From Candidatus Latescibacterota bacterium (GTDB lineage: Bacteria; Latescibacterota; UBA2968; GCA-2709665), in NCBI GenBank assembly GCA_965205485.1, contig OZ242180.1:1280001-1344000 (forward strand): a DNA stretch of 64,000 bases, given 5' to 3'. Made by a program: the position numbers and the translations under genes. Of the stretch, positions 7,196 to 43,415 are shown one piece after another. Position 1 is the first letter of the stretch. Every line of letters begins with the position of its first letter. The notes beneath the pieces were generated by a model that saw only the letters and a list, made by a program, of their open reading frames with translations, was not told the origin of the DNA and did no database searches.

Positions 7196-7421
7196 CACGT
7201 CTCCTGATCCCTGGCAGCCCCCCGTCGAAAGCAGCTTCCATCTGCTCGCCCGAAACACTTGCGAAACACGCCCCTTGATGTCTATCTTGACCTTCCAATG
7301 TAGTTTCTTCCAAGTTCATTGTTGTCTGGTTATCGGTCTAACCATAATATAATACAATGACTTGTGTAATGAAACTACCTTTTTTGTTTGTAATTCAGAC
7401 TTTTCTACTGAGGGGGCATTC

Positions 7422-23652: not shown

Positions 23653-25623
23653 TCAAACGGCTTCAGTTACCGCTCCTCGCATCGCCAGGATGTACTTCGC
23701 CCGATCCAGCGGCGATATCCCCTTGTAGGGCCGCACGACGCCCTCGCCCGGCGGGCACGGCTCATATCCGTCGTACTTGAAGGAGAATTTCGCCGTTCCG
23801 CCTGTCAACGAGTTCAGCCGGATCGAATAGTCCATCGAAGTCGCAAGGGGTAATCGTCCCGTAACCGATAACGCACCTCCGTCTGCCTCTACTGGATCGA
23901 AGGTGCCGCGCGCGTTTATGATGTCCGACGTGATCCTGCCAACGTAGGTCTCGGCCACCGTGATTTTGAACGCCAGTATCGGTTCGAGCAGAATCGACCC
24001 GGTCTCGGTCAGCCCTTTCAACACCGCGATATTCGTCGCGAGTTTGAAATTGCCCGCACGGCTGTGCAGAACGTGATCGCTCCCCTCCACCAGGGTAATC
24101 TTCAGATCCGTGACTTCCCATCCCTTGATTCCCTGCCTGAACGCGCCCTCGATCGATCTTTCGATCTCCTTCTGATATCGTGCCTTGATGTCGTTGACGC
24201 CGACCTGTGACGAATAAACGACACCGCTTCCCGGCTCGCCCGGTTCGATCCGATACTTCACGATGGCCCAACACGGTTTCGGCATCGTGTAGCGCTCGAT
24301 GCCGAAGCCGACCGAAGCAGGTGTCTCCTTGTAAATGACCGCTGGGTCACTAAACCGCGCCTTTATGCCAAATCGCGCATCGAGCATCTCGGTCAGAATC
24401 TCCGCCTGAACCGGGCCCATGATCTTCAACTGCAGTTCGCGTTCATCCTCGAACCACGTGAAGTTGAGGTGTGGGTCTTCGCTCGACAACTGTTGCAGCG
24501 CCCCGGCCAGCAGAGCGTGATCCGCCTCGTGTTCCGGGATTGCCTGTACCGACAGCAGCGGCTCTCCGAGTTCGCAGGACCCGGGGATGGGGCCCGGGTC
24601 GCCCAGGATGTCGCCAATCTTCGCCTCCGGCATCCCGCAGAAGAAACCGATGTCGCCGGCGGAGAGGGCGCCCGTGTCCTCGTATCGATTGAGATAGGAT
24701 TTCTTGATCTGCGTAATCTTCTCGTCGCGATCAGCCGTAACATTCCGGATGATATCTCTGTTTTGGAGTCGTCCTGCAAAGAGACGAACGCCGGCGATGC
24801 GCCCAAGTTTCGGATCGTGGTCGAGCTTGAACACCACACCGGAGGGTGGACGTGAGTCATCGACATTCGCATCGGGGAACCAGGCCACGATCTTCCCCAG
24901 CAGTTCCTCCGTTCCGATCATGTTCTTGGCCACACCGCAGAGTATGGGAAACAGTTCTCTCCTGGCCGTGCAAGCCGCAATCACTTTCTCGATCTCTGCT
25001 TTTGAAATTGGCTCCTCGTTCAGAAATCGCTCCAGGAGTGCGTCGTCCTTCGCGGCTACGGTCTCTGCCAGGACGGCTTGACCGTCCGCGTCAAGATCGG
25101 TCATGCGCGCGTCCGATTCGCCTTCCTTCTCCGGCTGATTGACCAGTATCACGTCGCGCGAAAATCGACGCTTCAGATCATCGACGACCCTCGCCGTATC
25201 CGCGCCGATCCGATCCAGTTTGTTCACGAACACGATGACGGGTACGTTCAGCGCTTCCAGCGCGGCCCATATCGACTCAGTCTGGGCCTGGATGCCTTCG
25301 ACCGCGGAAAGAACGAGAACGGCGCAGTCCAGCACCCGAAGAGACCGTTCGACTTCGGCGGAAAAATCGACGTGACCCGGCGTGTCGATCAGGTTGATCC
25401 TCACGCCCTCCCACTCAAATGACATCGCCGATGCCCGGACCGAGATCCCTCGCCGCCTCTCCACGTCGAGCGTGTCGGAGAGGCTTGTTCCCTTGTCGAC
25501 ACTTCCGGCCATGCGGATGGCACCGCTCTGGAACAGCAGATTCTCAGTCACGGTCGTCTTGCCGGCATCGACGTGCGCGAGGATACCAAGATTGCGTATT
25601 CTCGAGGGATCTCCAGGAGACAC
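23653..25623 (-). CDS. TetM/TetO-like translational GTPase (ribosomal protection protein-like, EF-G paralog)
   Basis: AHVDAGKTT, GSVDKG, ERRRGIS, DTPGHVDF, NKLD, GIKGWEVTDLKITL; about 656 aa from GTG 25623. Confidence 0.85.
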   Translation of the reverse strand: MSPGDPSRIRNLGILAHVDAGKTTVTENLLFQSGAIRMAGSVDKGTSLSDTLDVERRRGISVRASAMSFEWEGVRINLIDTPGHVDFSAEVERSLRVLDCAVLVLSAVEGIQAQTESIWAALEALNVPVIVFVNKLDRIGADTARVVDDLKRRFSRDVILVNQPEKEGESDARMTDLDADGQAVLAETVAAKDDALLERFLNEEPISKAEIEKVIAACTARRELFPILCGVAKNMIGTEELLGKIVAWFPDANVDDSRPPSGVVFKLDHDPKLGRIAGVRLFAGRLQNRDIIRNVTADRDEKITQIKKSYLNRYEDTGALSAGDIGFFCGMPEAKIGDILGDPGPIPGSCELGEPLLSVQAIPEHEADHALLAGALQQLSSEDPHLNFTWFEDERELQLKIMGPVQAEILTEMLDARFGIKARFSDPAVIYKETPASVGFGIERYTMPKPCWAIVKYRIEPGEPGSGVVYSSQVGVNDIKARYQKEIERSIEGAFRQGIKGWEVTDLKITLVEGSDHVLHSRAGNFKLATNIAVLKGLTETGSILLEPILAFKITVAETYVGRITSDIINARGTFDPVEADGGALSVTGRLPLATSMDYSIRLNSLTGGTAKFSFKYDGYEPCPPGEGVVRPYKGISPLDRAKYILAMRGAVTEAV

Positions 25624-26061
25624 AGGATAATCGTTCCAATGGCGGGTGGCTTGAGACAATCGACGTGCTGGGGTGGTACACACTTCATGATAAACAAAAG
25701 TCGTCATGCCTGCGAGAAAGTCCCGCAGCGGGGCAGGCGTAAACGTCGGTTCTGACGACGGCGCCAGACGTCTCCCCCCGGCCCCCTCTCCTGAAGGAAA
25801 GGGGAAGGAAAACCAGGAAAACCGGCCTAACACGGAAACATGAAAGGACACAAAGCGAATGCCGGATACAGGGACAAGGCGGGCAACCACAAGGGTTGCC
25901 CCGACAAATGCGAGGATTTCTCCGGACGGGCAATACCTCCCTGCCGAGCGGAACCCGGCGCATGCCGGTTCCTTGATACAACAGCATCTGTCTTTTAACC
26001 TCTTCGCTTGACAAGATGAACCCAATTGACGTACTTTTTCCGAACAGATCGGAGGTGCGCC

Positions 26062-26292: not shown

Positions 26293-26495
26293 AAATCCAT
26301 CCCATCCAAGACGATGACAACGGCCTGCCAGCAAGACACATTGGCAGGCCTTGTTATTTCCCCCTTCTTTTCCCCTTCCTCCTTGCCTCTATCCGCGCAT
26401 TTTCTTAAAATTACAAGCCCGTGCGCTTCGCGCAGGATGCAACTCGACGCGGTGTTTTCGAAAGACTTCTTCCCTTTCCGGCAACAGGAGAACGA

Positions 26496-27779
26496 ATGCA
26501 GACCGATTACGCGTTTGAGATGGGGACTTCGAATTTGCGGTTCGGACCGGGCGCGACAAGGGAAGTGGGCATGGATCTGTCCGAACTTGGCGCCAGGCGC
26601 GCGATGCTGTTAACGGACCCCAATCTCGTGGACCTGCCGCCTGTGCGGACGGCTGTCGAATCCCTCAAGAGCGAGGGGGTCGATTACGCGCTTTTTGACC
26701 GTGTCCGGGTCGAACCCACGGACGTGTCGTTTCAGGAAGCCATCGACTTTGCACTGGATGGAAACTTCGATGCGTTCGTTGCCGTGGGCGGCGGTTCCTC
26801 CATCGATACGGCAAAAGCCGCGAATCTCTATTCCACCTTTCCCGATGATTTCTACGCGTACGTGAACGCCCCGATCGGCAGCGGCAAGCCGGTTCCCGGC
26901 GCGCTCAAGCCATTGATCGCGATTCCGACGACCGCCGGAACCGGCAGCGAGACCACGGGAGTCACGATATTCGATATCTCCGAGAAACACGTCAAGACCG
27001 GCATCGCCCACCGCCGCCTGAAACCGTCGCTGGGCATTGTCGATCCTGAGAATACGCGAACCATGCCGCCGGTTGTTGCGGCCTCGACGGGCCTGGACGT
27101 GCTCTGCCACGCCCTTGAGTCGTATACGGCGATTCCGTACGACCAGCGCCCGTTGCCCGAACGGCCGATTCTGCGGCCGGCTTACCAGGGTACCAATCCC
27201 ATCAGCGACATGTGGGCGATCAGGGCCATCGAACTGGTCGCGGAGAACATCGTGCGCGCGGTTGCGGATCCGGATGATGACGAGGCGAGGTCGAATATGA
27301 TTCTGGCATCGAGCATGGCTGGGATGGGCTTCGGCAACGCGGGCGTTCATCTCCCTCACGGGATGTCCTATCCCGTCTCGGGGATGGTGCGGGAATACCG
27401 GCCGGAGGGGATGGTAAGCGACCATCCCATCGTGCCCCATGGGATGTCGGTCTTCCTGAACGCGCCGGCAGCCTTCCGGTTTACCGGTCCTGCATGCCCG
27501 GAACGCCATCTCAAGGCCGCGCAACTGCTGGGCGCGGACATTTCCGGGGTGAAGGACCCTGAGACGGAGGCGGGAGGGAACCTCGCCGACCGCATCGTCG
27601 TGCTGATGAAGCGTCTCGAAATGCCCAACGGACTTTCCGCGATCGGGTTTACGGAGGCCGACGTGCCCGCGCTGGTGGAGGGCACGCTACCCCAGCACCG
27701 AGTAACCAAACTGTCGCCGAGGCCGGCCGGCAGAGATGACCTGGCAGCTCTATTCAGGGACGCGCTGACTGCCTGGTAG
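26496..27779 (+). CDS. Hydroxyacid-oxoacid transhydrogenase (iron-containing ADH, ADHFE1-like)
   Basis: DYAFEM..SNLRFGPG.T.EVG, GGGSSID, YVNAPIG.G, PTTAGTGSETT, RPAYQG.NP, GVHLPHGMSYPVSG. Confidence 0.9.
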   Translation: MQTDYAFEMGTSNLRFGPGATREVGMDLSELGARRAMLLTDPNLVDLPPVRTAVESLKSEGVDYALFDRVRVEPTDVSFQEAIDFALDGNFDAFVAVGGGSSIDTAKAANLYSTFPDDFYAYVNAPIGSGKPVPGALKPLIAIPTTAGTGSETTGVTIFDISEKHVKTGIAHRRLKPSLGIVDPENTRTMPPVVAASTGLDVLCHALESYTAIPYDQRPLPERPILRPAYQGTNPISDMWAIRAIELVAENIVRAVADPDDDEARSNMILASSMAGMGFGNAGVHLPHGMSYPVSGMVREYRPEGMVSDHPIVPHGMSVFLNAPAAFRFTGPACPERHLKAAQLLGADISGVKDPETEAGGNLADRIVVLMKRLEMPNGLSAIGFTEADVPALVEGTLPQHRVTKLSPRPAGRDDLAALFRDALTAW

Positions 27780-27812
27780 GAATTGAGCGGATTTCAGGAG
27801 GATGAGACTCGC

Positions 27813-28877
27813 ATGGCTTCGACACGATCGTCAGAGCCACAGGTCGATTTCACCAGAGGACCCGGCGCGGATGGTTCGGATCATTTGCCCCCGTTTCCCG
27901 AAGGATGGTATCTGGTAGAGACGCGGGAGTCCCTTCTGCGGGAAAAACTGATCGAAAAGACCTGGATGGGAGAAGAAATCGTCGCATGGTGCGACGAGGA
28001 GGGCCGCGTCTGCGTGGCCGACTCGATATGCCCGCACCTGGGCTCATCCCTTGGGCCGGACGTTGGCGGGATGGTCTGCAACGGCCGTCTCGTCTGTCCG
28101 TTTCATGGATTCGAGTTCGATACGACCGGCCAATGCGTCGCGACGCCGAACGCTCCGGCGCCCAGAGCCGCGAAGCTGAAGGTCTACGAAACCAGAGAGA
28201 TTCTCGGCCTCGTCTTCGCCTGGTTCGGGAACGGCGGCAGGCCGTCACACTGGGACCTTCCGGGCGAGCCGCCCACCGGCGCCGAGTGGGGCGAAATCGG
28301 ATTCCGGACCCTCCGGTTCCGCGGCCATCCACAGGAAACGGCGGAAAACTCCGTCGACGTGGGGCACCTCCGCTACGTGCACGGCTACGACAAGGTAAAT
28401 CCAGTCGGTTCGTTAACTGTGGACGGTGCCTATCTTAAGAGTTGCTTCGACTTCAGACGCGTTCGCAGGATCCTGGGAGTAAAGGACCTCGTGTACGAAA
28501 TCTCGGCTGTCGCCCACATCCACGGACTGGGCTACTCTTTCGTCGAAATCCACGAGAAAACCATCGACATGCACGCAAGACTGTGGGTGCTTCCCACACC
28601 TGTTGACGGCTCCGTAATCGACCTCGTTCTGGCCGGCCAACTGAGGGAAATCCCAAAGCCCAGGCGGTTCATCTCGGGGCTGGGTTTCTTACCGATGACG
28701 TTGCGCCAACGGCTGATGAATCACATTCTGCTTTCAGCGCAAGAACAGGATGTATTGCAGGACGTGGTAATCTGGGAAAAGAAGCGGCATCGGTCGCCTC
28801 CGCGGCTCTGCCGGGCCGACGGCCCCATAGGCGCCTACCGCCGCTACTGCCGGCAGTTCTATCCGGAACAGCCTTAG
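27813..28877 (+). CDS. Rieske non-heme iron oxygenase, Neverland/DAF-36/KshA-like
   Basis: FPEGWY, Rieske CPHLG...CPFHG, mononuclear Fe ENSVDVGHLRYVH, C-terminal QDVVIWEKK...ADGPI..YRRYC.QFY. Confidence 0.85.
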   Translation: MASTRSSEPQVDFTRGPGADGSDHLPPFPEGWYLVETRESLLREKLIEKTWMGEEIVAWCDEEGRVCVADSICPHLGSSLGPDVGGMVCNGRLVCPFHGFEFDTTGQCVATPNAPAPRAAKLKVYETREILGLVFAWFGNGGRPSHWDLPGEPPTGAEWGEIGFRTLRFRGHPQETAENSVDVGHLRYVHGYDKVNPVGSLTVDGAYLKSCFDFRRVRRILGVKDLVYEISAVAHIHGLGYSFVEIHEKTIDMHARLWVLPTPVDGSVIDLVLAGQLREIPKPRRFISGLGFLPMTLRQRLMNHILLSAQEQDVLQDVVIWEKKRHRSPPRLCRADGPIGAYRRYCRQFYPEQP

Positions 28878-29020
28878 GGCTGATCGATGCGGCCTCCAGC
28901 TCCGCTGATCTGGATCGGAGCATTTTAGATGAGCTATGCAGATAGTATACAGATATATTCCAACGTCAATTACCAAAACAACGCCAGGACTAAATCAGAG
29001 GTTCCAAGCAACCTTGACAA

Positions 29021-29215
29021 GGTAACTGAAATGCTGTATCTTATAATTATATGAACAAGTTACACACTTCCAAAGCGAGTTCGAATCCTTCACCTTCTGC
29101 TTGAGGGAACGTCGATGCGGGCAGAATTTCGCATCATGCGCGTTTCAGTAAAACACCGTCTTCAGGCTGCTGATTGATGCACCCCTTGCCTGCGCAAGAT
29201 TCCACTCTGCTACGC
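29021..29215 (+). mobile_element. Degenerate IS1-family-like transposase N-terminal remnant
   Basis: With two frameshifts reads MNKLHTSK/RVRILHLLLEGTSMRA..RIMRVS/NTVFRLLIDA..ACARFH (HTH); preceded by GGTAACTGAAAT resembling an IS end. Confidence 0.55.
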
Positions 29216-29276
29216 CGAGGCCGTTATTGAGGGCCGCCATCCGACGACAGCAGGTGGCCAGAGGATAATTGGTTAA

Positions 29277-31313
29277 GTGATGACTCACGAAACAGCAGTT
29301 GGAACGGGCCCGGGGGCTTCCACGCTGAGTCTGCCGGAAGAGTTGCTGCTGGCGCTGCTGGACGAAGAGAGCGGTTATTTTCGTCAGGTGCCCGGCTGGA
29401 ACCTGAACTGCGCCATGGCCGGCGCAGCGCTGGGTGAACTGTCGCTGCGCGGTCGCATCGACACCGATCTTGAGTCGCTGACTCTGGTGGATGCGACCGA
29501 CACCGGTCGTCCGGTACTCGACCCGATCTTGCGGGAGATCTCGACCGAAACGGAAACACATGATGCCCGCTACTGGGTTGAGCGGCTTGCTCCGCAGTCC
29601 GAGTCGATGATCCCCCTGGCGCTGGACGGGCTCGTTCGGCGACAGATTCTCGACCTTCACCCGGGCGATTTCTATACCTTCACCAAGCGCCCGCCGCAGG
29701 ACGAAACACCGCAAGGAGACGTCCACCTGGCGGGCGAGTCCGTAAGGGCCCGGCTGACCAGGATCATCTTCTCGGACGAGATTCCGGGTCCGCGCGACGT
29801 CATTATCACCGGCCTCATCAACACCTGCCGCGTTTTCCATCTGATGTTTCAGATCGACGAGGAGGTGGAAGAACGGATTCAGTTCGTCAGCCAGATGGAC
29901 CTGATCGGCCAGGCGATTGCGGCAGCGGTGAGCCAGAGCATCATCGCACCCTCTCTTCGCCAGCCTTCGCTGACCAAACCGATTCCAACCGTGTCCCTGC
30001 GCGATCTGGTGTTCAACCGCGAGTTGCGAGAGGGCAGGCTGCCGGCAGGGTTCGCCATTCTGGCCGAAAAGTACGGTCCGGTATTCGAGCTTCGGCTCCC
30101 GTTCCGACAGAATATGATTGTCCTGGCAGGGCTGAAGACAAACGAATGGGCTCACCGCATGGGGCGGGTGTTCTTGCGGTCGAAAGAGTACTTCGAGGGC
30201 GTCGACAAGGCCTATGGCGTGTCGCGCTCGATGCACTCGGTTGACGGCGCCGATCACTTTCGCTTTCGCAAATCGTTGCAGCCCGCCTACTCTCGCAGGA
30301 CTTTGACCAGGCGTCTGGACGAGGTCTATGACCTGGCCCGTTCGCACATGGCGAGTTGGGACGTTGGCGCCGCGATGCCGGTGCAGGAGATGCTGCGACC
30401 ATTGCTGAACGCGCAGTCATCGCCGCTCCTGGCCAGCATTAACACCCAGGCCGAAATTGCCGACGCGCTCGAATACAAGATACGAGTACTCAATGTGGGC
30501 ATCGTCAAGATCCTGCCGCGCTTCATGCTCAAGACCCCGTCGATGCGCCGCCGGGCGAAGGCCATGCAAAAGATCGTAGACCGCATGCAGAGGACACATA
30601 CGGCCGCGCAGCGGGTTGGGATGCATGAGGACGTGGTGGACGCGTATCTGGCCCTGAACGCGTCCGATCCCCAGTTCCTCCCCGAATCGGACCTGTCGCT
30701 GCCGCTGGGCGCGATTCTGATGACCGCTATGTACATGGGCGATCAGATTGGCTTCGCCCTTTACTGGTTGGTGCAGAATCCCGAGTTGTACGAGCGAGTC
30801 ACGGCCGAAGCGGACGCGTTGTGGGCCGAGGGCGATCCCAGCGAGGAGGACTTCACTCGAGACCGGATCGACGTGACCCACCGGGTGCTGATGGAGGCTC
30901 TGCGGATGTCGCCGATCGTGGCCATGTCGATGCGCACGGTGATGAATACCTGCGTGGTGGAGGGTTACGAACTGCCGGTCGGGTCGCAACTCATGATTGC
31001 GCAGACGGCCACGCACTACTCAGAAGAGTCGTTTCCCGATCCGTGGACGTTCGACATCGACCGCTACCTGCCCCCGCGAAACGAGCACCTTGGCAGAGGC
31101 TACGCGCCCTTCGGACTGGGCACGCACTCATGTCTCGGGAGCCGCTGGGCCGACATGCAAATGGCGATCAATCTGCTGATGCTCACGCATCACTTCAAGA
31201 TCGAACTGGACCGTCCCTACGAGCGGTTGCCGATGGACCCGTTGCCCTCACAATCCCCCAGCAACAAACTGAAATTCAGGCTCGTTGAGCAGCGGCACGA
31301 ACTTCGAGTCTGA
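29277..31313 (+). CDS. GOLPH3/GPP34-domain - cytochrome P450 fusion protein
   Basis: N-terminal LSLPEELLLALLDEESG...AGAALGELSLRGRI...TG.PVLD.IL (GPP34-like); C-terminal KYGPVF, EALR, FPDPWTFDIDRY, FGLGTHSCLG (heme Cys codon 31131). Confidence 0.85.
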   Translation: MMTHETAVGTGPGASTLSLPEELLLALLDEESGYFRQVPGWNLNCAMAGAALGELSLRGRIDTDLESLTLVDATDTGRPVLDPILREISTETETHDARYWVERLAPQSESMIPLALDGLVRRQILDLHPGDFYTFTKRPPQDETPQGDVHLAGESVRARLTRIIFSDEIPGPRDVIITGLINTCRVFHLMFQIDEEVEERIQFVSQMDLIGQAIAAAVSQSIIAPSLRQPSLTKPIPTVSLRDLVFNRELREGRLPAGFAILAEKYGPVFELRLPFRQNMIVLAGLKTNEWAHRMGRVFLRSKEYFEGVDKAYGVSRSMHSVDGADHFRFRKSLQPAYSRRTLTRRLDEVYDLARSHMASWDVGAAMPVQEMLRPLLNAQSSPLLASINTQAEIADALEYKIRVLNVGIVKILPRFMLKTPSMRRRAKAMQKIVDRMQRTHTAAQRVGMHEDVVDAYLALNASDPQFLPESDLSLPLGAILMTAMYMGDQIGFALYWLVQNPELYERVTAEADALWAEGDPSEEDFTRDRIDVTHRVLMEALRMSPIVAMSMRTVMNTCVVEGYELPVGSQLMIAQTATHYSEESFPDPWTFDIDRYLPPRNEHLGRGYAPFGLGTHSCLGSRWADMQMAINLLMLTHHFKIELDRPYERLPMDPLPSQSPSNKLKFRLVEQRHELRV

Positions 31314-31378
31314 GTTCGCTGCGCCCGCTCCTCCAAAGCCTGGAACTGGTCCGCGATTCCCGAATTGAGCCTTTCGCA

Positions 31379-32407
31379 ATGAAATCATCTGGCGGCGGAC
31401 GACCTCGCACCGTACGGGTGATCACGGGCGCGAGCGGGCAGATCGGCGGGGTGTTGACGCGGGCCCTTACCGGTAAGTACGGGCCCCGTCAGGTCCGTGC
31501 GATCTTTCGGAAGCGTCGAGGAACGGCGGCGGATCTCGACATCGCATGGGTCAATGGCGACATTCTCGACAAGAAATCGCTGATCGCCGCCTTCGCGGGC
31601 GCGGAAACCGTGTTCCATCTGGCCGCGTTGGTCTCGATCGGTAGCGTCAGGGCGCACGAATTCCATCGCACGAATGTCCTGGGCACCCGCAATGTCGTGG
31701 AAGCGGCCCTCGAGTGTGGCGTGAGACGCCTGGTTCATGTTTCCTCGATCCACGCTTACGAACAGCACCCGCTGGACGAAGTACTTGACGAGAGCCGCCG
31801 TGCTGTGGACAGCCCGCGCGACGCTCCCTACGACCGTTCGAAAGCCGCCGGCGAAGTGGAAGTCCGCCGCGGCATCGACCGCGGGCTTGACGCCGTAATC
31901 CTGAATCCAACCAGCGTCATTGGCCCCTATGACGGCGAGCCCTCGCCTATGGGGCAGTTTTTTCTCGACCTCTACCGCGGGCGGCTTCCCGCGTTGATTG
32001 CAGGTGGCTACGACTGGGTCGATGTGCGCGATGTCGTGGCAGCCGCTATGGCCGCCGAGTCGCGGGCGAGATGTGGCGAAAACTACCTCGTCTCAGGTCA
32101 CTGGCACACCGTGCGCGAACTGGCGGAACTCTCCCGGCAGGCGACCGGTGTAGCCCCGCCCCGCCTCCAGTTCCCGATGTTCGCCGCCCGGTTATGGGCG
32201 CCCTGCCAGGTCGTCCTGGATCGGTGTCGCGGACGCCGTCCGCTCTACACGCCGGTGTCCGTCCGCGTCATGGCCCACGGCAATCGGCGGATATCCAGCG
32301 CCAGGGCGAAGGCGGAACTCGGGTTCCACTCGCGCTCGCTCGCAGAATCGGTCAGGGACACGTACCGCTGGTTCGACGAACACGGCATGCTGGGTGAAGA
32401 CGCGTGA
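31379..32407 (+). CDS. NAD-dependent epimerase/dehydratase, extended SDR (3beta-HSD/HpnA-like)
   Basis: TGASGQIG, FHLAA, NVLGTRNV, HVSS, YDRSK (YxxxK), VDVRDV. Confidence 0.85.
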   Translation: MKSSGGGRPRTVRVITGASGQIGGVLTRALTGKYGPRQVRAIFRKRRGTAADLDIAWVNGDILDKKSLIAAFAGAETVFHLAALVSIGSVRAHEFHRTNVLGTRNVVEAALECGVRRLVHVSSIHAYEQHPLDEVLDESRRAVDSPRDAPYDRSKAAGEVEVRRGIDRGLDAVILNPTSVIGPYDGEPSPMGQFFLDLYRGRLPALIAGGYDWVDVRDVVAAAMAAESRARCGENYLVSGHWHTVRELAELSRQATGVAPPRLQFPMFAARLWAPCQVVLDRCRGRRPLYTPVSVRVMAHGNRRISSARAKAELGFHSRSLAESVRDTYRWFDEHGMLGEDA

Positions 32408-32478
32408 CATGACCGAAGAGCGTCCGCTGTCTGTTGATCAGCGTGTGCGCCCCCATGTCCGAATGTCGTTCGTTCGCA

Positions 32479-35400
32479 TTACCGGACGGGAACCAGATGC
32501 AGACGGATGGCGTACAGCGCGGGGACGATCATCAGCAGGATTGAAGTGGCGATGAGTATTCCGAAGCCCAGCGAAGCGGCGAAAGGGACGAGGAACTGGG
32601 CCTGAACGGCGCGTTCCAGGATGAGGGGAAAGAAGCCGAGGAAAGTCGTCAGGGAAGTGAGCATAATGGGTCGAAAACGTCCCTTTGCGCCTTCGATGAT
32701 CGCAGTTCGCACCGGGGCGCCTTCATCGAGTTTCTGATCGATGAAGTCGATCATCACCAGAGAATCGTTCACGACCACGCCGCTCAGGCCGAAGACGCCC
32801 ATGAAGGATACCGCGCTCAGGGCCAGCCCCAGGACCCAGTGACCAAGGATCACGCCGATCAGGCCGAATGGGATGACGGCCATGATGATGAACGGTTTGG
32901 TGTAGGAGCGCAACGGAATGGCAAGCAGCCCGAAAATCATAATCAACGCAATCCCAAACCCGCGAAACAGTGCGTCAAGAGACTCGAGCTGCTGTTGTTG
33001 TTCCCCTCCAAACGTGTATGTCAGGTCCGGGTCCGCTGCGATGAGGTTCGCCAGGATGGAATTGGCCAGGATGTCGTTGGCTTCGTCGCCCGTGATCACC
33101 GCCTCGTCCACGTCGGCTGTGACCGTGACCACCCGCTGCCCGTCCTTCCGTCGAATCGCCGGCGGCGACATGCCCGATTTCAACGCGGCAACGCTGGTTA
33201 CAGGAACCTCGGACCCGTTCGGCGTGCGGATCAGGTACCCTTCGATATCGGTAATGGAATTCCGCTCATCCTCTGGCAGCCGCACGTAGACCCGGACCTC
33301 TTCCCGACCGCGCTGCACCCTAACGGCCTCCGCTCCGAAAAAAGCCGCGCGCGCCTGTCCAGCCAACGCATCAAGCGTGAGACCGAGCGTCTGCGCTTCG
33401 GGCCGCAGCTCGAGTTGGACCTCCGGGACGCCCGGCGTGTGGTCCGAACGTACGTCGTGGACGCCCCCAATGCCGCGGAGTCCGTCAACCACCGTCCCTG
33501 CGACCCTGACAAGCCGCTCCGGTTTCGGGTGGGACAGGACGGCCTCCACGGGGTTGCCGAAGTCGATGATCTCGCCGCTGTACGTGATCCCCCGCACGTA
33601 GGGCAATACCCCAACCTCCTCGCGCCAGGCCTGCACGAAATCGACGGTGGAGATCTGTCTTTGCTGTGCGCCCAGCAGTTTGAATTCTATGGTGGCGATG
33701 TTGGCTTCCGGATTCAGGGTCGGCGCCGGGTTCAGGCCTCCGCCCTGGATGCGCGGCCGCAGACCTACCGTTACGATAACGCCGGTTAGCAGCGGAGGCG
33801 CGTCCGCCGGCCGGTCCCGGGATAGGCGGTCGATGACCCGGTGTCCGGCATCTTCCAGTTCCCGCGCCACCTCGTACGTCCTCGTCGCGGTCGTCCCGTC
33901 GGGCATCTCCAGTGTTACGGTTGCGAAATCTCCCTCGACGTCAGCCGCCAATGTGGTTGGGATGATACCCGCGGCGACCAATGAGAAACACAGCACAAGC
34001 AACCCCACCGCACCCGACATTGTCACCCATGGCTGGTCGGCGGCAAACCGCAATGCCCGGTCCAGAGGGCCCTGCACGAAACCGTTCAGCAGCACGTCCA
34101 CCCGGTCCTGCACCCGTGCAAAGAAACGATCGAAAGCATATGCCGGCACCCATTCCGGGCCGTGCATGTGCGACAGGTGGTTGGGCAGGATCAGCAGGGA
34201 TTCGATAAGAGAAACGATTAGGATAGCGATCATGATAATCGGCAGCGCCCGCCACGAATCACCAACCCCGCCCGGGATGAACAGCAGCGGCACGAAAGCA
34301 ACCACCGTCGTGAGTACCGCGAAAATCAGCGGTACCTTTATCCGGCGTGCGCCCCGGATCGCAGCCAGGACCCCGGGCGTACCGCGCTTTCGTTCGTTCT
34401 GGATGAGTTCGGATACGACAATGGCGTCGTCCACGACGATTCCTATGGCGAGGACGAATGAGAACAGGCTCTGAGCGTTGATGGCAACGTCGAGTACCAG
34501 CATCACCGCAAGGGCGCCGATGCCCGAAACGGCCAGTCCGACCGCGACCCACATCGCAAGACGGATCTGGAGAAAGAGGCTGAGTGAGACCAACACCAGC
34601 AGAAGGCCCAGTACCCCGTTCTTGAGGAGAATATCGGTGCGTTCCTTGAAGTCCTGGGACTCGTCGTTCCATATGGTAACGCCCACGCCGTCAGGCAGTG
34701 ACGGAATCACCTCGTTCGCCAGGTGTTCCCTGACGGACGTGGCGACGTCCATCACGTGTTCGCCATCGGCCCGGTAGACTTCCACGAACACTGCCGGATG
34801 GTTCTGATGCCGGACAACCAGGTCGGCTTCCTGGAAATCGTCCTGGACTTCGGCGATATCGCCGATGCGCAGAACCGTACCGTCACGCTTGGTCAGAAGC
34901 ACGATTGCTTCGAAATCCTGCTGATCGTAATTCTGGCCGAGGGTCCGAACGCGCACCTGGGACTCCCGGGTGTCGATACTGCCGGCCGACAGGTCCAGAG
35001 AACTGCGGCGTACCGCGTTGGCGACGTCGTTGAGTGTAAGCCCGAGGGACCTCAGGTGATGAAGCGGCACCTCGATGGAGATCTCGTAATTTCTGACGCC
35101 GCTGACCTCCACCTGTGATACGGAGGAAAGCGTCTTGAGCTCATCCTCGATCTGGTATGCCAGTTCCTTCAGCGAGCGCTCCGGCACATCGCCGTAGACA
35201 ATGAGACGCATCATGCTCTGGCGGTTGGTCATCTCCCAGAACAGGGGACGTTCGGCGCCGCCGGGGAACGTCTGTATCCGGTTGACCACGGATTCGATAT
35301 CGTCCAGGGCCCGGGCCATGTCCGTACCGGAATCCATTTGAATTCTTACGGACGCGATACCCGGCGCCGCCACTGACTTGACCGCCTTCACGTCGTCCAA

Positions 35401-35652
35401 ACCGCTGACCCGGTCCTCGATCTTGACAACGATCGACTCCTCCACCTCCTCCGGTGTGGCGCCGGGATAGGCCATGGAGACTTCGATGTGGTAGAAGGGC
35501 ACCGTGGGCCACGCTTCCCGCTCCAGGCCGGTCAGCGACACCAGCCCGAACGCGACAATGGCCAACATCAGCAAATTGGCCGCGATGCTGTTGCCGGCCA
35601 TATAGGCGATCGGCCCGGGCCGTTCGCCCCGGATGTCGTCATTCGTACTCAT
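32479..35652 (-). CDS. RND efflux transporter permease (AcrB/AcrD/AcrF family)
   Basis: YPGATPEEVE, GIVVDDAIVV, GVVVNDSLV, RFRPIMLTSLTT; 1057 aa. Confidence 0.95.
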   Translation of the reverse strand: MSTNDDIRGERPGPIAYMAGNSIAANLLMLAIVAFGLVSLTGLEREAWPTVPFYHIEVSMAYPGATPEEVEESIVVKIEDRVSGLDDVKAVKSVAAPGIASVRIQMDSGTDMARALDDIESVVNRIQTFPGGAERPLFWEMTNRQSMMRLIVYGDVPERSLKELAYQIEDELKTLSSVSQVEVSGVRNYEISIEVPLHHLRSLGLTLNDVANAVRRSSLDLSAGSIDTRESQVRVRTLGQNYDQQDFEAIVLLTKRDGTVLRIGDIAEVQDDFQEADLVVRHQNHPAVFVEVYRADGEHVMDVATSVREHLANEVIPSLPDGVGVTIWNDESQDFKERTDILLKNGVLGLLLVLVSLSLFLQIRLAMWVAVGLAVSGIGALAVMLVLDVAINAQSLFSFVLAIGIVVDDAIVVSELIQNERKRGTPGVLAAIRGARRIKVPLIFAVLTTVVAFVPLLFIPGGVGDSWRALPIIMIAILIVSLIESLLILPNHLSHMHGPEWVPAYAFDRFFARVQDRVDVLLNGFVQGPLDRALRFAADQPWVTMSGAVGLLVLCFSLVAAGIIPTTLAADVEGDFATVTLEMPDGTTATRTYEVARELEDAGHRVIDRLSRDRPADAPPLLTGVIVTVGLRPRIQGGGLNPAPTLNPEANIATIEFKLLGAQQRQISTVDFVQAWREEVGVLPYVRGITYSGEIIDFGNPVEAVLSHPKPERLVRVAGTVVDGLRGIGGVHDVRSDHTPGVPEVQLELRPEAQTLGLTLDALAGQARAAFFGAEAVRVQRGREEVRVYVRLPEDERNSITDIEGYLIRTPNGSEVPVTSVAALKSGMSPPAIRRKDGQRVVTVTADVDEAVITGDEANDILANSILANLIAADPDLTYTFGGEQQQQLESLDALFRGFGIALIMIFGLLAIPLRSYTKPFIIMAVIPFGLIGVILGHWVLGLALSAVSFMGVFGLSGVVVNDSLVMIDFIDQKLDEGAPVRTAIIEGAKGRFRPIMLTSLTTFLGFFPLILERAVQAQFLVPFAASLGFGILIATSILLMIVPALYAIRLHLVPVR

Positions 35653-36860
35653 GGCGACTCGTCAGTCTCCGTCTGAACGGGCATTCCCTCCGTGGCGAAG
35701 TGAATCCCGCCGGTGATTGCCGCCAGACCGTGTTCCAGCGAACCCGTCACGTACGCCTCATCGTTGGAACGCTGCAAAACCCGAACCGGAACGATATTCA
35801 CAGCGCCGCTCTTCACCATCCAGACCTCGTTGCCGGGCTTCAGCGATGCCCGTGGGATCCTGAAAAAGCCCTCCCCGAACCTGCCCTCGATTTCCACCTG
35901 GACAAACTTGCCCACCAACAGTGGCGGACGAACACCGGGGTTGACGTTCCCGTTCGCCGGGACGTCCGCGGAAAACGGATCCGGTACGCGCACGATGACG
36001 TCGATGGTGCGCGATTGCTCGTCGAGGGCTGCCTCGGCTCGATCCACGTAGCCTTCCCATTCGTATTGCCCGTCGCCGTGCCGGGCGACCACCCGGGCAG
36101 CCACGCCCAGATTGCCGTCACCCGCCTTCAGTTTCCACAGGTCCGGAATGAGGGCGGCGTTGCCGTCGGTCAGGGGTACGACCACTTCCACCGCGTCGGC
36201 GGCAAACAGCCGGCCCACCGGCTGGCCTGGGCTGACGATCTTTCCCCGGTCCACGGATTCCTCGCGCACCACGCCGTTGAAAGGCGCGGTTATCGTGGTC
36301 CTGGACAGGGCGAGCCTGGCGTCGGCAAGCCTGGCTTCGTCGCGATTCAGCGCGGCCTTCGCCGCGTTCAACTGGGGCTCTCTCAGCGTAAGGGGATTCG
36401 TATCGGACGGCGAAGCCCCGTCCCCACGCTGCCGCGCGTAAAGTTCGTACTGTGAGCGGGCAATGGATGCCTGTTCCTGTTCGCTGAGCAATGCCACCCG
36501 GCTGGCCGCAAGAATGGCCTCGGCTTCCCGAACACGAAACCGATAGTGGACCTCCTCGATCCGGAACAGGGGCTGTCCGGCGGTTACCCGGCCCCCGCTC
36601 TTGAAGCCCGGGTCCACCCAGACCACCCTGCCGCCCACCTGAGGAACGATGTCGACCTCCGCACCGGGCCGCACGGTACCGGCACCGAATACCGGTATGG
36701 CCCCTGCCCCGGCGGCAACCGGACCCGTCTGCACGAACGGTATCTGGGGAGGCTGTTCGGTCCGCGTGGGTTCGGGCGCAAGCGAGACCAGAAGGGCAGC
36801 CAGACCCACGGAAAACAAGATTATGGCGCTGGCGGTCAAGACAGTGGTTATGCGGGACAT
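35649..36860 (-). CDS. RND efflux periplasmic adaptor (MFP)
   Basis: N-terminal TM, PQVGGRVV, RTTITAPFNG; 4-nt overlap with permease start. Confidence 0.9.
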   Translation of the reverse strand: MSRITTVLTASAIILFSVGLAALLVSLAPEPTRTEQPPQIPFVQTGPVAAGAGAIPVFGAGTVRPGAEVDIVPQVGGRVVWVDPGFKSGGRVTAGQPLFRIEEVHYRFRVREAEAILAASRVALLSEQEQASIARSQYELYARQRGDGASPSDTNPLTLREPQLNAAKAALNRDEARLADARLALSRTTITAPFNGVVREESVDRGKIVSPGQPVGRLFAADAVEVVVPLTDGNAALIPDLWKLKAGDGNLGVAARVVARHGDGQYEWEGYVDRAEAALDEQSRTIDVIVRVPDPFSADVPANGNVNPGVRPPLLVGKFVQVEIEGRFGEGFFRIPRASLKPGNEVWMVKSGAVNIVPVRVLQRSNDEAYVTGSLEHGLAAITGGIHFATEGMPVQTETDESP

Positions 36861-36866
36861 GGCAAT

Positions 36867-38396
36867 CTACTCCGTTGGAGGTCGGGAGACAGGCTGCGTC
36901 GGTGATTCCGGACCGGTTGCCTGGCGGGGGTCGGGGGTCCATGCGCCTCCCAGCGCCCGGTGCAGGGCAAGACGGGCCAGACCCAGATCGCGTTCCGCCG
37001 TCGCGAGCAAGGATTTCGCGGTCAGCCGGATCTGCATTGCGTTAAGTAAAGCTCTATAGCCAACGACACCGGAAACGTACCGCTGCTCCTGCAGTTCTTT
37101 TTCCGCTTGAGCCGTGTTCGATCGAGCGGTTAGCAGCGAATGGCGCCGGCGGCTGGCCTGCAGGCCGGCAAGGGCGGCCTCAACCTCGTTGACCGCGGTG
37201 ATCACGGATTTCCCGTAGACCGCGACTGCGCCTTTCAATCCGGCTTTCGCAAGAGCGAGATTGGCTTGAAGCCGGGTACCCTGGAATACGGGTCCCAGGA
37301 GGTTCATGCTCAGATTCCGGAACCATTGCTCCGGGTTGAACCACTCGCTCGACTCCGTACTCTGCAGCCCGATGGATCCGTGAAGGGACAGTCTCGGCGC
37401 CAGGTCCGCGCGGCGTGCGCCAACCTGGAGTCGGGCCGCTTCCATCCGCTGCCTGGCCGCGACGACGTCGGGACGCTGCGTCAGAAGGCGGGTCGGAATG
37501 CCCGCAGGAACGGGTTGCAGGGCTCCGTTGCTGTAAGGGGAGTCCGACATCAATCCCGCGAGGTCCACGCGGTTGTCTCCCATGAGCACCCGGAGCCTCC
37601 CCTCGGCATTGGCCAGCAGCGCTTCGATCTGCGGGAGTTCGGCCTGTGCGGTGCGCGAATCCTGCCGCGCCCTGTGGAGGACGCTCACGTCGGTCAGCCC
37701 GCGATCGTAGCGGGACTCGGCCAGCGACTCCCGCTTCCGGGAGACCTCCGCTATTTCGGTTGCCAGCGTCCGTTGGCGGCGCAGGTTGACAATTTCAAGG
37801 TAGGTCCGGACGGTTTCGGCCAGAACGCCCATCCTGGCTGTCATATAGTCCGACTCGGATGCGAGGCGCTCCGCGCCCGCGGCCAGCCCGTCGTTCCGGT
37901 TCCGGCCCCAGAAATCCAGTTCGTAGGCGAATTCCACACCGGCCGTATAGGTCGTCAGCCCGATTCGATCCGGGAGCGTGATTCCCGGCACGCCGCCCCC
38001 TCCCGAACCGACTCCCAGTTCGTCCAGCTGGGCGCCGATACCCGCGTTGGTGGGCGCGTCGAACTCATTGACGCCGGCTGTCGGCTGAATGGAGGGGAAC
38101 AGGGGCGCCCTGGCGATGCGTGCGCGCGCCCTGGCCTGATCGACCCGGGCGACCGCGGCCGCCAGGTCGAAGTTCGATTCCAGCACGTTCTCGATTATCC
38201 TGTTCAGGGCCGGATCGGCGAAGGATATCCACCATTCCCGGCGTTGGATTGAGACAGTGACTTCACCCCCTGCGGATCCGTCGGTCAGCTCGGAAACCGA
38301 TTCAGCGACCGGCGGCGCTGAACGCGGCGCAAGGGTGCAGGCGGAGACGAAAAAGCCGACGAGAGCCGGCGTGAGTCTTTTTCGCGAGATAGACAT
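36867..38396 (-). CDS. Outer-membrane efflux lipoprotein (TolC/NodT family)
   Basis: Lipobox FVSAC, WWISFADPALN, YELDFWGR, LLTQRPDV, ALGGAW. Confidence 0.9.
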   Translation of the reverse strand: MSISRKRLTPALVGFFVSACTLAPRSAPPVAESVSELTDGSAGGEVTVSIQRREWWISFADPALNRIIENVLESNFDLAAAVARVDQARARARIARAPLFPSIQPTAGVNEFDAPTNAGIGAQLDELGVGSGGGGVPGITLPDRIGLTTYTAGVEFAYELDFWGRNRNDGLAAGAERLASESDYMTARMGVLAETVRTYLEIVNLRRQRTLATEIAEVSRKRESLAESRYDRGLTDVSVLHRARQDSRTAQAELPQIEALLANAEGRLRVLMGDNRVDLAGLMSDSPYSNGALQPVPAGIPTRLLTQRPDVVAARQRMEAARLQVGARRADLAPRLSLHGSIGLQSTESSEWFNPEQWFRNLSMNLLGPVFQGTRLQANLALAKAGLKGAVAVYGKSVITAVNEVEAALAGLQASRRRHSLLTARSNTAQAEKELQEQRYVSGVVGYRALLNAMQIRLTAKSLLATAERDLGLARLALHRALGGAWTPDPRQATGPESPTQPVSRPPTE

Positions 38397-38480
38397 GTCG
38401 CTGAACCGAGGAAGCTCGAGCTTACGCTTGGTGTTCTGTAGGATGTTGAAGCCCTGACAGCGTATGGTGAACACGCTTTA

Positions 38481-40899: not shown

Positions 40900-43227
40900 T
40901 CAACGCAATAACGCCGGTCCTTTCTCGTTCTCCCAGTCCATGCGCACACGGTCCCGCCTTCCGTCGGCATGGTCGACGTTGACGGTCCACACGTTTGCGC
41001 GCCGGACGGTTCTTGTCGTGATTCCGGCGGTGACGCGGTCCGTGCCGAAGGGGTATATCACGTACCCCGCTCGGAACGGGAGCCGCGTCCTTCTTCTGTA
41101 TACGGCCACCGGCGCAGGCACGTCCTCCCCGCTGACCGCCAGCCAGCCCTGGACCGGGTCGTTTTGGCCGCAGACCAGCCGGGGCGTCATCCGGGTCAGA
41201 GGAATCAACTCCAGGTTGGGTGCATCCATGCGCCCGGTGCGGACGGCGCCGGTTTCGGAATCTGTCAGCAGACGGAACGGCATGAAGTGGAACAATGCCT
41301 CGTACGTATGGCTGCCCTCGCCCGTCAGTTCATCGAAAACCATGAAATAATCCGGTTTGACGAAAATCACGGCGCGGCGATGCCGGACGGCCGCATCCAG
41401 GTCCGCGTAGGGCGCGTCGTAACTCGCCGCGGCAACATCGGAACCGTCATCCGAATGCCAGAATGTGGAATCGCGGGCGGAACGGGTCCATTGTTCGACG
41501 GTCTGGTTGCGGCCACGGGCCTGCGCGCGGCCGTCCACAAGGACGGTATTGTGGGCCTGCGTGGTCGCATAGAACCGGGTCCAGGGGTTGGTGTAGTACG
41601 ACGTGATGCCGGGATCCACGATAAAGGGCGTGCCGTAGGCATAGACTTCGAAGCTGAGTTTGTCTTCGTGCTGGTGCCAGCGGCCGTAAGGGGCCCCCTC
41701 GAAGAAGAGATATCGCGCGTCCCGGTCCCAGCCGCTCCTCATGATGAAATAGCCCGAGTCGCGCAGGGCGACCGATTCATAGTCCGGCGGCGCGCCCTCA
41801 CGTCCCCCGGTGCCCACCCACACCGCGGTCGGATTGTCGAGGACGCGTCCGGGTCGCTCAAGGGACTCTCCATATTTGGAGTCCATGCTGCCGGCGTCGG
41901 AGACGGAGGGATGGGTGAAGTCCGGTCGGGTGATGGCCACGCACCAGTCGAACATCGATCGAATGCCGGCTTCCAGTTCGGGATCGAGCGGATGGTTGAA
42001 CTTTCGCGCAACCTGAAACGACTCAAGGAACCACGTGGCGATGCTCATTTGGTAACCGGGAGTCAGCTCGTAGGAAGCCCCGTCGGGCATCACCTGGATG
42101 CGCATGTCCTCCAACAGCCTGCGATAGCCTTCTTCCCGCCATTGGGCGGCGTCCCTGAATTCGGGAAAGGCGCAGCCCAATGCGGCGATGGTCCGTGCCT
42201 CGGCAATGGTCTTGTTCGAGGGCGGGAAGGACTGGAAACGCAGCAGACAGGCCTGATGCTCGTAGATCGACTTGAGCATATCGATAATCGTGGTGTCATC
42301 GGTTTCCTGACACGCGCAGAGGACGCGGAACACGTCAACGAGTGTGCTGAACGGCCGGATGGCCACCACGAGCGAATGGCCCCACGGGTACCCGCCGGCG
42401 CGAACGCCGTAGGGTACCGGGCAACGCCGCATCCAGTCCGCGATATATCGCTCGATGGCCTTCGCGTATTTCACGTCACCGGTTTCCCAGAACGCGTCAA
42501 TCGCCGGCCTCAGGAACAGGAGATAGTGGATGGCCAGCGTCCATTCGATGTAGCCGGTTGGATTGGCTTCCCAGTCGATCTCCGTCGACCAGTCCTGCCC
42601 CAGGACCCGGCCTTCCAGCACGCGGTCGGCCTGGTCGGGATCGGCGTTCGGCTCCTGTTCGCTCGGGACCAGTTCCCGGTCGAAGCCGCTGGACCTGAAA
42701 TATCTCGCGACTTCCGTCAGAAGGGACCCATCCCGCGCGTCCTTCAGCATTTCCAGTCCCGGGTATTCCGGGTCCAGCGCGGTGATGAGGTCTTCATCCG
42801 TCATCCGCGGGCCGGGCGTTATTTCCCGCTCCACCAGACGAATATTGCGAAACCGGCTGCCTTGCGGACCTTCAAGCGCTGCCGATCGCGTCTGGTGCCA
42901 TCCCGACGGAATCCCCCGCGTATAGAAACACTCGGAGGGAAACCGGAATTCCCGCCAGCCCTCCCAGATGTTCCCGCCTCGCGGGGAGACGATGGCGTGG
43001 AACAGATAGCCGTCGTCCTCGCTCATGCCCTCGGTGCGGTGGCCCGACGTCAACCGGCACCAGAGCAGGCCGTTCGCGCCGGGCGGCAGATACACGTCGG
43101 CGCGAACTTCGTTTACCCGCCGCCAGTCACTTGAATTCACAGGCAGGTCGACGTCCACTTCGTGCTCGGATTCCACAAGAAGCTGTTCCGAGATTATCGT
43201 ATCGTCCTCAAACTTCGCGAGGTCCAT
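40900..43227 (-). CDS. Heparinase II/III family polysaccharide lyase
   Basis: QVMPDGASYELTPGYQ, SGYFIMRSGW, HQHEDKLSF, VDPG..Y, T.AHNTVLVDG, HRRAVIFVKPDY. Confidence 0.85.
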   Translation of the reverse strand: MDLAKFEDDTIISEQLLVESEHEVDVDLPVNSSDWRRVNEVRADVYLPPGANGLLWCRLTSGHRTEGMSEDDGYLFHAIVSPRGGNIWEGWREFRFPSECFYTRGIPSGWHQTRSAALEGPQGSRFRNIRLVEREITPGPRMTDEDLITALDPEYPGLEMLKDARDGSLLTEVARYFRSSGFDRELVPSEQEPNADPDQADRVLEGRVLGQDWSTEIDWEANPTGYIEWTLAIHYLLFLRPAIDAFWETGDVKYAKAIERYIADWMRRCPVPYGVRAGGYPWGHSLVVAIRPFSTLVDVFRVLCACQETDDTTIIDMLKSIYEHQACLLRFQSFPPSNKTIAEARTIAALGCAFPEFRDAAQWREEGYRRLLEDMRIQVMPDGASYELTPGYQMSIATWFLESFQVARKFNHPLDPELEAGIRSMFDWCVAITRPDFTHPSVSDAGSMDSKYGESLERPGRVLDNPTAVWVGTGGREGAPPDYESVALRDSGYFIMRSGWDRDARYLFFEGAPYGRWHQHEDKLSFEVYAYGTPFIVDPGITSYYTNPWTRFYATTQAHNTVLVDGRAQARGRNQTVEQWTRSARDSTFWHSDDGSDVAAASYDAPYADLDAAVRHRRAVIFVKPDYFMVFDELTGEGSHTYEALFHFMPFRLLTDSETGAVRTGRMDAPNLELIPLTRMTPRLVCGQNDPVQGWLAVSGEDVPAPVAVYRRRTRLPFRAGYVIYPFGTDRVTAGITTRTVRRANVWTVNVDHADGRRDRVRMDWENEKGPALLR

Positions 43228-43415
43228 GAATCGTCCCCTTCGCGTAGGCGGTTTCAAATCCACTTCAAGGTCTTCTCAGTCGCTCCATCTGGCGGTCGCC
43301 CGGAATTGTCCCCATTTCTCTCTTGCTTTCTGGTACTCTGACCGTACTGAGTCAATTGAATCTGCCGGCGTCCCCTTCAGGACCGAATTTTCCAGCTTTG
43401 ATTCGAGGATTGCTC

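Follow-up and report, generated by a model that had tools for sequence, protein, structure and literature searches.

A GPP34-cytochrome P450 fusion of sponge-associated bacteria as a possible component of a sterol-modifying gene module

What does a bacterium do with a cytochrome P450 that begins with a GOLPH3-like domain and lacks the usual acid-alcohol pair of its I-helix? The gene that raises this question lies at 29277..31313 (+) of the window, by which we mean the whole 64,000-nucleotide stretch of Latescibacterota DNA analyzed here. An earlier note, made from the sequence, had described it as a single open reading frame (ORF) with GPP34 and P450 domains and an odd I-helix; Pfam matches, an alignment, and a predicted structure (pLDDT 89.9, pTM 0.86) confirmed that description. 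Domain matches, homologues, and the predicted structure place the 678-residue protein in an SDR-linked subfamily of a P450 clade with a short I-helix. Its arrangement, PF05719 N-terminal and PF00067 C-terminal in one chain, recurs in 120 of the 120 homologues listed. At three other loci (L025, L051, and L060) the fusion appears as two ORFs broken inside the P450 part, by a frameshift or a sequencing error.

The architecture itself is known. Ferreira et al. (2025, Microbiome 13:4; PMC11706023) named it GPP34_L and reported that 656 of 663 long forms combine GPP34 with a P450. In that work GPP34_L, with 656 copies in a 780-genome set, was found only in sponge symbionts, was monophyletic, and was expressed; in architecture, habitat, and phyla it matches our fusion. 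The earlier note had allowed that the fusion might already be characterized, which holds for the architecture and, in the portions of the paper available, not for the biochemistry: these portions do not touch on heme, sterols, the I-helix, or the pocket residues, the words "heme" and "sterol" being absent from the main text and "sterol" and "steroid" from the spreadsheet supplement. In the literature searched, which lay outside subscription journals, we found no prior report of a short-helix Tyr clade, of subfamily-specific sterol partners, or of a missing PI4P pocket in this family, and these three features are apparently new.

A sponge-associated bacterial origin was borne out by sequencing run X5, labeled sponge metagenome, which contains 0.84 of the sequence words and has one contig covering positions 26303-32791; the four best-matching runs bear a coded organism label.

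The two domains of the fusion

The GPP34 domain spans residues 19 to 219 (29331..29933, +) by Pfam, alignment, and fold search. The fold search found the fold of GOLPH3 and Vps74, as the earlier note had expected, at about 17 to 20% identity to human GOLPH3 and yeast Vps74. In GOLPH3 the PI4P pocket is formed by W81, R90, R171, and R174 (PMC2806290). In a profile alignment, which is not a residue-level superposition, the three arginines fall opposite A48, E109, and I112 of the fusion. No Arg or Lys occupies the R90 and R171 columns in the 65, 66, and 36 bacterial sequences aligned; the R171 column holds Glu or Asp in 65 of 65 fused proteins, and in the R174 column the query has Ile, as do 54 of the 65 (7 have Arg). 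A Trp near the W81 position is kept in 58 of the 65, with a placement that varies by method: HMMER sets W81 against P39, and phmmer sets W88 of Vps74 against W41. The domain is acidic (35 D+E versus 17 K+R). Unlike GOLPH3, the fusion is missing an insert of roughly 10 residues before the arginines and is attached to an enzyme. Membrane targeting in the manner of GOLPH3 and PI4P, one element of the earlier proposal, is thus not supported. By hydropathy, no segment of the fusion exceeds a mean of 1.45, and there is neither a hydrophobic leader nor a membrane span.

At eight mosaic loci, of which one pair looks like a single record counted twice, the P450 is 84 to 92% identical to the query and the GPP34 domain only 54 to 60%; the latter is nearer to that of a sister subfamily (67 to 79%). 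The GPP34 domain is therefore exchangeable between P450 subfamilies, which would fit a generic docking role. A stand-alone GPP34 protein of 217 residues is also encoded in the source genome (L069, G000:C1:1810933-1811556; Pfam E value, 5.5e-48), divergent from a SulP-like transporter and without a recognized P450 or sterol gene in its vicinity; most relatives have similar genes.

The P450 domain takes up about residues 230 to 678 (29964..31310, +), as defined by sequence and fold search. The Cys ligand loop, ExxR, the His and Arg residues for the heme propionates, and the P450 fold are all present in the sequence and the predicted structure. Cys619 (31131..31133, +), the heme thiolate ligand, is conserved in 120 of 120 close homologues, and it, H327, and R553 are unchanged in all 66 sequences of alignment A1. 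The top PDB matches, by sequence and by Foldseek, are CYP51 enzymes, including Methylococcus CYP51 (PDB 6mcw), with which the fusion shares the long-P450 fold; in Foldseek the fatty-acid P450s BM3 and CYP184A1 are nearly tied with them. The likeness to CYP51 is weak, however, at 23% identity, and the source genome has no sterol cyclase over the cut-off. A CYP family is by rule defined at 40% identity or more, and the AGxHT motif (AGHHT in the CYP51 compared) is absent from the fusion, which has a shorter helix with a Tyr. By these two marks the protein falls outside CYP51.

The I-helix clade and its gene partners

The I-helix (residues 474 to 500; 30696..30776, +) is, by the alignments and the predicted structure, one residue shorter than the canonical helix, and Tyr486 (30732-30734) stands in place of Asp-Thr. 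The canonical A/G-G-x-D/E-T motif is absent, as the earlier note had observed, and T483, Y486, G488, D489, and Q490 are found in all 120 sequences of the query and its 119 close homologues. The register of Tyr486 depends on the method (opposite the Thr in MAFFT, opposite the Asp in hhalign); in both, one Tyr replaces the pair.

We then compared the helix across the query and 105 of the best 150 distant representatives, the other 45 having a P450 part outside 380 to 560 residues; a GPP34 domain is present in 50 of those 150. The helix is one residue shorter in 13 of the 106 sequences, with Tyr at the site in 10 of the 13, and 80 of the remaining 93 retain D-T or E-T. A tree built after masking of the I-helix columns still unites these 13 in one clade (FastTree support of 1.0, midpoint-rooted, without an outgroup). 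No more than 9 of 42 fused sequences belong to this clade, which makes the odd helix a trait of one clade and not of the fusion. The short helix is probably the derived state, and in the aligned sequences the acid-alcohol pair is replaced across the whole clade, by a one-residue deletion usually accompanied by Tyr. The residues around the I-helix are under strong purifying selection and are among the most constrained parts of the protein: median dN/dS was 0.07 for residues 470 to 500, 0.19 for the P450, and 0.47 for GPP34, in 33 comparisons that all have the window sequence as their common reference.

On the forward strand the fusion is preceded by a Rieske oxygenase with a steroid-type KshA_C domain (27783..28877, +) and followed, 65 nucleotides past its stop, by an extended SDR (31379..32407, +); the permease, adaptor, and outer-membrane factor of an RND pump, recognized by domain matches, come next on the other strand (32479..38474, -). 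The intergenic gap contains a weak sigma-70-like match to a promoter (29014..29042, +), with 3 such matches found versus 1.3 ± 1.1 in shuffles. The SDR resembles 3beta-HSD, SdmB, and HpnA and has TGxxGxxG, S123, Y151xxxK155, and R44, the last invariant in 9 of 9; it scored 206.6 bits against SdmB and 204 bits against the hopanoid-linked HpnA, far under both NCBIfam cut-offs. The Rieske enzyme was ruled out as SdmA at 37.1 bits versus a cut-off of 600, and assignment of the pair as an SdmAB C-4 demethylase fails on both counts (NF052579, 37.1 bits; NF052578, 206.6 bits; both below 600). A steroid 5alpha-reductase family protein (PF02544; 9678..10436, +) is unlinked in the window, 19 kb from the fusion; many related loci have it immediately after the SDR. 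Another Rieske-KshA_C gene, followed by a sterol C-24 methyltransferase-like gene, is found 10 to 12 kb before the window (L071:7846-10000 in G000).

Other genes of the window include an EF-G/TetM-like GTPase (23653-26025, -), whose best NCBIfam model is a tetracycline ribosomal protection protein (548 bits, below the cut-off of 775), a 702-residue protein with only a weak transglutaminase-like match (15896-18004, +), a PD40 beta-propeller protein (7362-8636, +), a NOV_C-domain protein (8723-9562, +), and a heparinase II/III-like lyase (40900-43263, -).

The earlier note had also reported that no ferredoxin is encoded nearby, which held: the window has no Fer2 gene, no redox partner is linked to the fusion, and no ferredoxin occurs among the recurring neighbor clusters of 120 residues or more. 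Unlinked ferredoxins are common for bacterial P450s, so this absence is by itself no pointer to peroxide use.

Across GTDB, 68 loci were surveyed out of 95 matching stretches. By record titles they belong to Latescibacterota, Gemmatimonadota, Alpha- and Gammaproteobacteria, Acidobacteria/Bryobacterales, Rhodothermales, Dehalococcoidia, Binatia, and Opitutales, and the P450 domains are up to 90 to 91% identical between phyla, an identity that points to horizontal spread. The SDR is present at 46 of the 68 loci, the 5alpha-reductase at 33, a Rieske protein at 21, a related RND permease at 17, MMPL at 13, and a methyltransferase at 6. Of the loci assigned to this subfamily, 44 extend at least 2.5 kb downstream; in 32 of them the SDR directly follows the fusion, in 37 an SDR is nearby (in 3 of these a distant SdmB-like one), in 28 the 5alpha-reductase is near the fusion and in 16 it is absent, and in 17 there is a Rieske gene. 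Some loci have genes for an ERG2-type isomerase, a sterol methyltransferase, or MMPL/sterol-sensing proteins, and the partners include steroid-specific families (PF02544, PF08498, PF04622, and PF19298). In six Dehalococcoidia loci (64 to 67% identity) none of the partner genes lies within the stretches examined; at three Dehalococcoidia loci the SDR next to the P450 resembles SdmB more strongly (284 bits at L048). These genomes and loci are related and overlapping, and the counts are not independent.

In 41 genomes (the source genome and its relatives) the P450 subfamily (at least 78% identity) and the SDR orthologue (at least 87%) coincide: both are in 5, and neither is in the other 36. The 5alpha-reductase is in all 5 of these and in 9 more in which the subfamily was not found, 2 of the 9 having their match at a contig edge. 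In the source genome, which is 97% complete, there is no squalene epoxidase, and neither a sterol cyclase nor a squalene-hopene cyclase scored over the cut-off.

Four further arrangements were seen among the loci. An ERG2/sigma-1 sterol isomerase and a 296-residue protein of no assigned family lie between the P450 and the SDR at L003:10560-11180 and at L022. A recurring 245-residue protein without a Pfam match (L026:12441-13172 and 5 other loci) sits beside MMPL or a sterol methyltransferase and is a weak lead to an EBP isomerase. Locus L094 (G017:C1:377000-396000) has a sterol-synthesis-like cluster, broken by transposase-like ORFs, with an SdmA-like Rieske protein (515 bits) and two SdmB-like SDRs (481 and 506 bits). 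At L095:8079-10343 a 755-residue P450-containing protein is divergent from genes that, read by eye, are tocopherol-pathway-like.

The partners of the P450 change with subfamily. In a hand-picked sample of 18 of the 30 strongest genome matches (E ≤ 1e-98), drawn from one order and not independent, 9 were of a sister short-helix subfamily (52 to 55% identity), 8 were of canonical type, and 1 was a mosaic. A sterol-methyltransferase-like gene follows the fusion in 8 of the 9 sister loci, and the SDR and 5alpha-reductase are in none; sulfotransferases are near 6 of the 8 canonical-type fusions. The sister loci (L072-L079 and L088) have a similar setting, with RND and Rieske genes and, in four of them, an Fe-ADH gene; their sterol methyltransferase is divergent and is accompanied by an FAD oxidoreductase, which looks like cassette replacement among relatives. 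At L080 and L081 a canonical-type fusion lies right behind a tandem array of two or three sulfotransferases, which is a lead toward sulfated sterols, of which trisulfated stanols are a compound class.

A proposed function and its alternatives

We propose that the intact heme-thiolate P450, with its GOLPH3-fold domain, performs the oxidative step of a mobile ring-A sterol module, a reading to which we give a probability of about 0.45. That the substrate is a sterol is likely; a ring-A step coupled to the SDR is slightly favored; C-3 oxidation as the exact reaction is a tentative choice. Since neither a sterol cyclase over the cut-off nor a squalene epoxidase turned up in the genome, any sterol substrate would be imported, and the P450 would likely work in the bacterial cytoplasm on sterols taken from the sponge host.

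The choice of reaction follows from the partners. 5alpha-Reductases need 3-oxo-Delta4 steroids as substrates, and SDRs with a basic residue after beta-2, here R44, prefer NADP(H) and tend to reduce, which would leave oxidation of the Delta5-3beta-ol to the enone to the P450. A host Delta5-3beta-hydroxy sterol would enter the membrane, and the P450, supplied with electrons from an unlinked ferredoxin system, would convert its C-3 alcohol to the 3-oxo-Delta4 steroid, the substrate hydroxyl and Tyr486, Asp489, and Thr483 possibly replacing the lost proton relay. Plant CYP90A1 oxidizes sterol C-3, and in EryF a substrate hydroxyl can replace the lost Thr. The 5alpha-reductase would then reduce Delta4, and the SDR, probably NADPH dependent, would reduce the 3-ketone to give a 5alpha-stanol, which Rieske enzymes and methyltransferases encoded elsewhere might modify further and an RND or MMPL pump might move. 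The part of the GPP34 domain would be that of a general docking or scaffold module, neither a PI4P reader nor a specificity element. The earlier suggestion of a lipid-targeted P450 with nonstandard chemistry survives in part: action on a lipid and unusual chemistry are favored by the replaced pair, its strong constraint (dN/dS of 0.07), and the sterol-type neighbors, whereas PI4P-like targeting is not.

Known systems offer partial parallels. SdmA/SdmB(C) C-4 demethylation (PMC10202945) likewise combines an oxygenase and an extended SDR that works on C-3, and the sterol clusters known from sponge symbionts (PMC10070321 and PMC7074536) are gene clusters of the same sort. Here, in contrast, the oxygenase adjoining the SDR is a P450, a 5alpha-reductase is added, and the SDR and Rieske proteins score far under the SdmB and SdmA cut-offs; the main text of PMC10070321 does not contain "cytochrome P450," nor that of PMC7074536 "P450."

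The nearly equal SdmB and HpnA scores of the SDR (206.6 and 204) count against our proposal, as do the 9 genomes with a 5alpha-reductase in which the subfamily was not found, the 16 of 44 loci that lack this reductase, its distance of 19 kb from the fusion in the window, the six Dehalococcoidia loci bare of partners, and the weak likeness to CYP51. SdmB and SdmC decarboxylate and reduce (PMC10202945); an SDR of this family can itself both oxidize and reduce C-3, and so the P450 may do another reaction. Oxidative demethylation and ring contraction draw on the same three genes as the ring-A reading. In the former, which is unlikely, the P450 would take the C-19 (or C-4) methyl group to the acid, the SdmB-like SDR would oxidize C-3 and decarboxylate, and the 5alpha-reductase and SDR would yield a 19-nor-5alpha-stanol (or a 4-desmethyl sterol). 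SdmB is indeed the best NCBIfam model of the SDR, the SDRs beside the P450 in three Dehalococcoidia loci are more SdmB-like, the nearest solved P450s are methyl-removing CYP51s, and the route to 19-nor-stanols runs through a Delta4-3-one. Such stanols are reported from a sponge (a reference title in PMC8398655), but the literature available names one species and the module spans many symbiont phyla. Moreover, the SDR, at 207 bits, is far from the 481 to 506 bits of the SdmB-like proteins in a cluster for de novo sterol synthesis, and triple methyl oxidation leaves the loss of the acid-alcohol pair unexplained.

Unlikely to the same degree is a non-sterol substrate (hopanoid, fatty-acyl, or other lipid), or a P450 domain that carries heme but binds or senses a lipid with no turnover. 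The HpnA score, the near tie of BM3 and CYP184A1 in the fold search, the missing catalytic pair, and the lack of a linked redox partner would all suit it. Against it stand the source genome without a squalene-hopene cyclase over the cut-off, the steroid-specific partner families, the invariant heme ligands, and a new I-helix that is among the most constrained parts.

Slightly less probable still is an enzyme free of redox partners, either a peroxygenase or an isomerase rearranging a sterol hydroperoxide or endoperoxide, as CYP152, CYP74, or CYP8A do. Both the acid and the Thr are gone, no ferredoxin was found in the window or among the recurring neighbors of 120 residues or more, and the nearby Rieske-KshA_C enzyme could make Delta5,7-sterols, which form endoperoxides. 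CYP152 is marked by an I-helix Arg-Pro and a Pro after the Cys, and CYP74 by a Cys-loop insertion, but the fusion has neither set of hallmarks: its Cys loop has the usual length and carries Phe/Tyr at 612, the residue after the Cys is not Pro in 119 of 120 close homologues, and there is no I-helix Arg. Canonical-helix fusions equally have no ferredoxin among their recurring neighbors (ORFs of 150 residues or more), and the link to the 5alpha-reductase would go unexplained. Peroxide use or rearrangement, as the earlier note had imagined, thus has no positive sign in its favor, and a peroxide-driven enzyme is less likely than the ring-A module, as is a secreted PI4P effector.

Ring contraction is very unlikely. 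The P450 would form a C-2 or C-4 cation on a 5alpha-stanol made by the SDR and 5alpha-reductase, a semipinacol shift would extrude C-3 as an aldehyde, and the SDR would reduce this to a 3beta-hydroxymethyl-A-nor-sterane. The three-gene set has the right parts, and A-nor-5alpha-sterols, for which a bacterial origin has been suggested, occur in sponges (PMC11117879), but the hydroxymethyl-A-nor-sterols are apparently limited to one sponge family (PMC8398655) and the module is widespread. In CYP114, which contracts a ring in gibberellin synthesis, clade-wide loss of the I-helix acid is likewise tied to unusual chemistry, and the contraction relies on the missing acid; CYP114, however, retains the Thr and requires a dedicated ferredoxin (PMC10293830), whereas in the fusion one Tyr replaces both residues and no ferredoxin is linked.

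The published hypothesis (PMC11706023), in which the protein is a secreted effector that blocks the maturation of phagosomes and binds PI4P of the host through its GPP34 domain, is the least credible: the shared fold, the Trp near W81, and restriction to and expression in sponge symbionts speak for it, but the pocket arginines are replaced, the domain is acidic, a hydrophobic leader is absent, the gene sits in an enzyme cassette, and the main text of that paper has no signal-peptide analysis.

Meaning for sponge symbionts

GPP34_L is among the most widespread symbiont-specific proteins of sponges, and its sole published function is a host-manipulation hypothesis (PMC11706023). Where that work proposed a PI4P effector, our data point to sterol tailoring with subfamily-specific partners. 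If this is true, GPP34_L would be a sterol-tailoring enzyme, with consequences for sterane biomarkers and for the question of which organism produces the modified sterols of sponges. The P450, with one Tyr for Asp-Thr, would be a natural test of how far a proton relay can be rebuilt, and the three-gene set is directly expressible.

A broader reading is speculative and, taken whole, rather doubtful. The short-helix Tyr clade would be a catalytic class new among P450s, with the GPP34-P450 family as a modular kit swapped among symbiont phyla for rebuilding host sterols, in which the SDR/5alpha-reductase subfamily acts on ring A by cutting or rearranging it (giving 19-nor or A-nor sterols) or resets C-3, the methyltransferase-paired subfamily activates the side chain, and the sulfotransferase-paired subfamily makes sulfated polyhydroxy steroids. 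Were it true, unusual "sponge" sterols would be bacterial products of an identifiable and expressible pathway.
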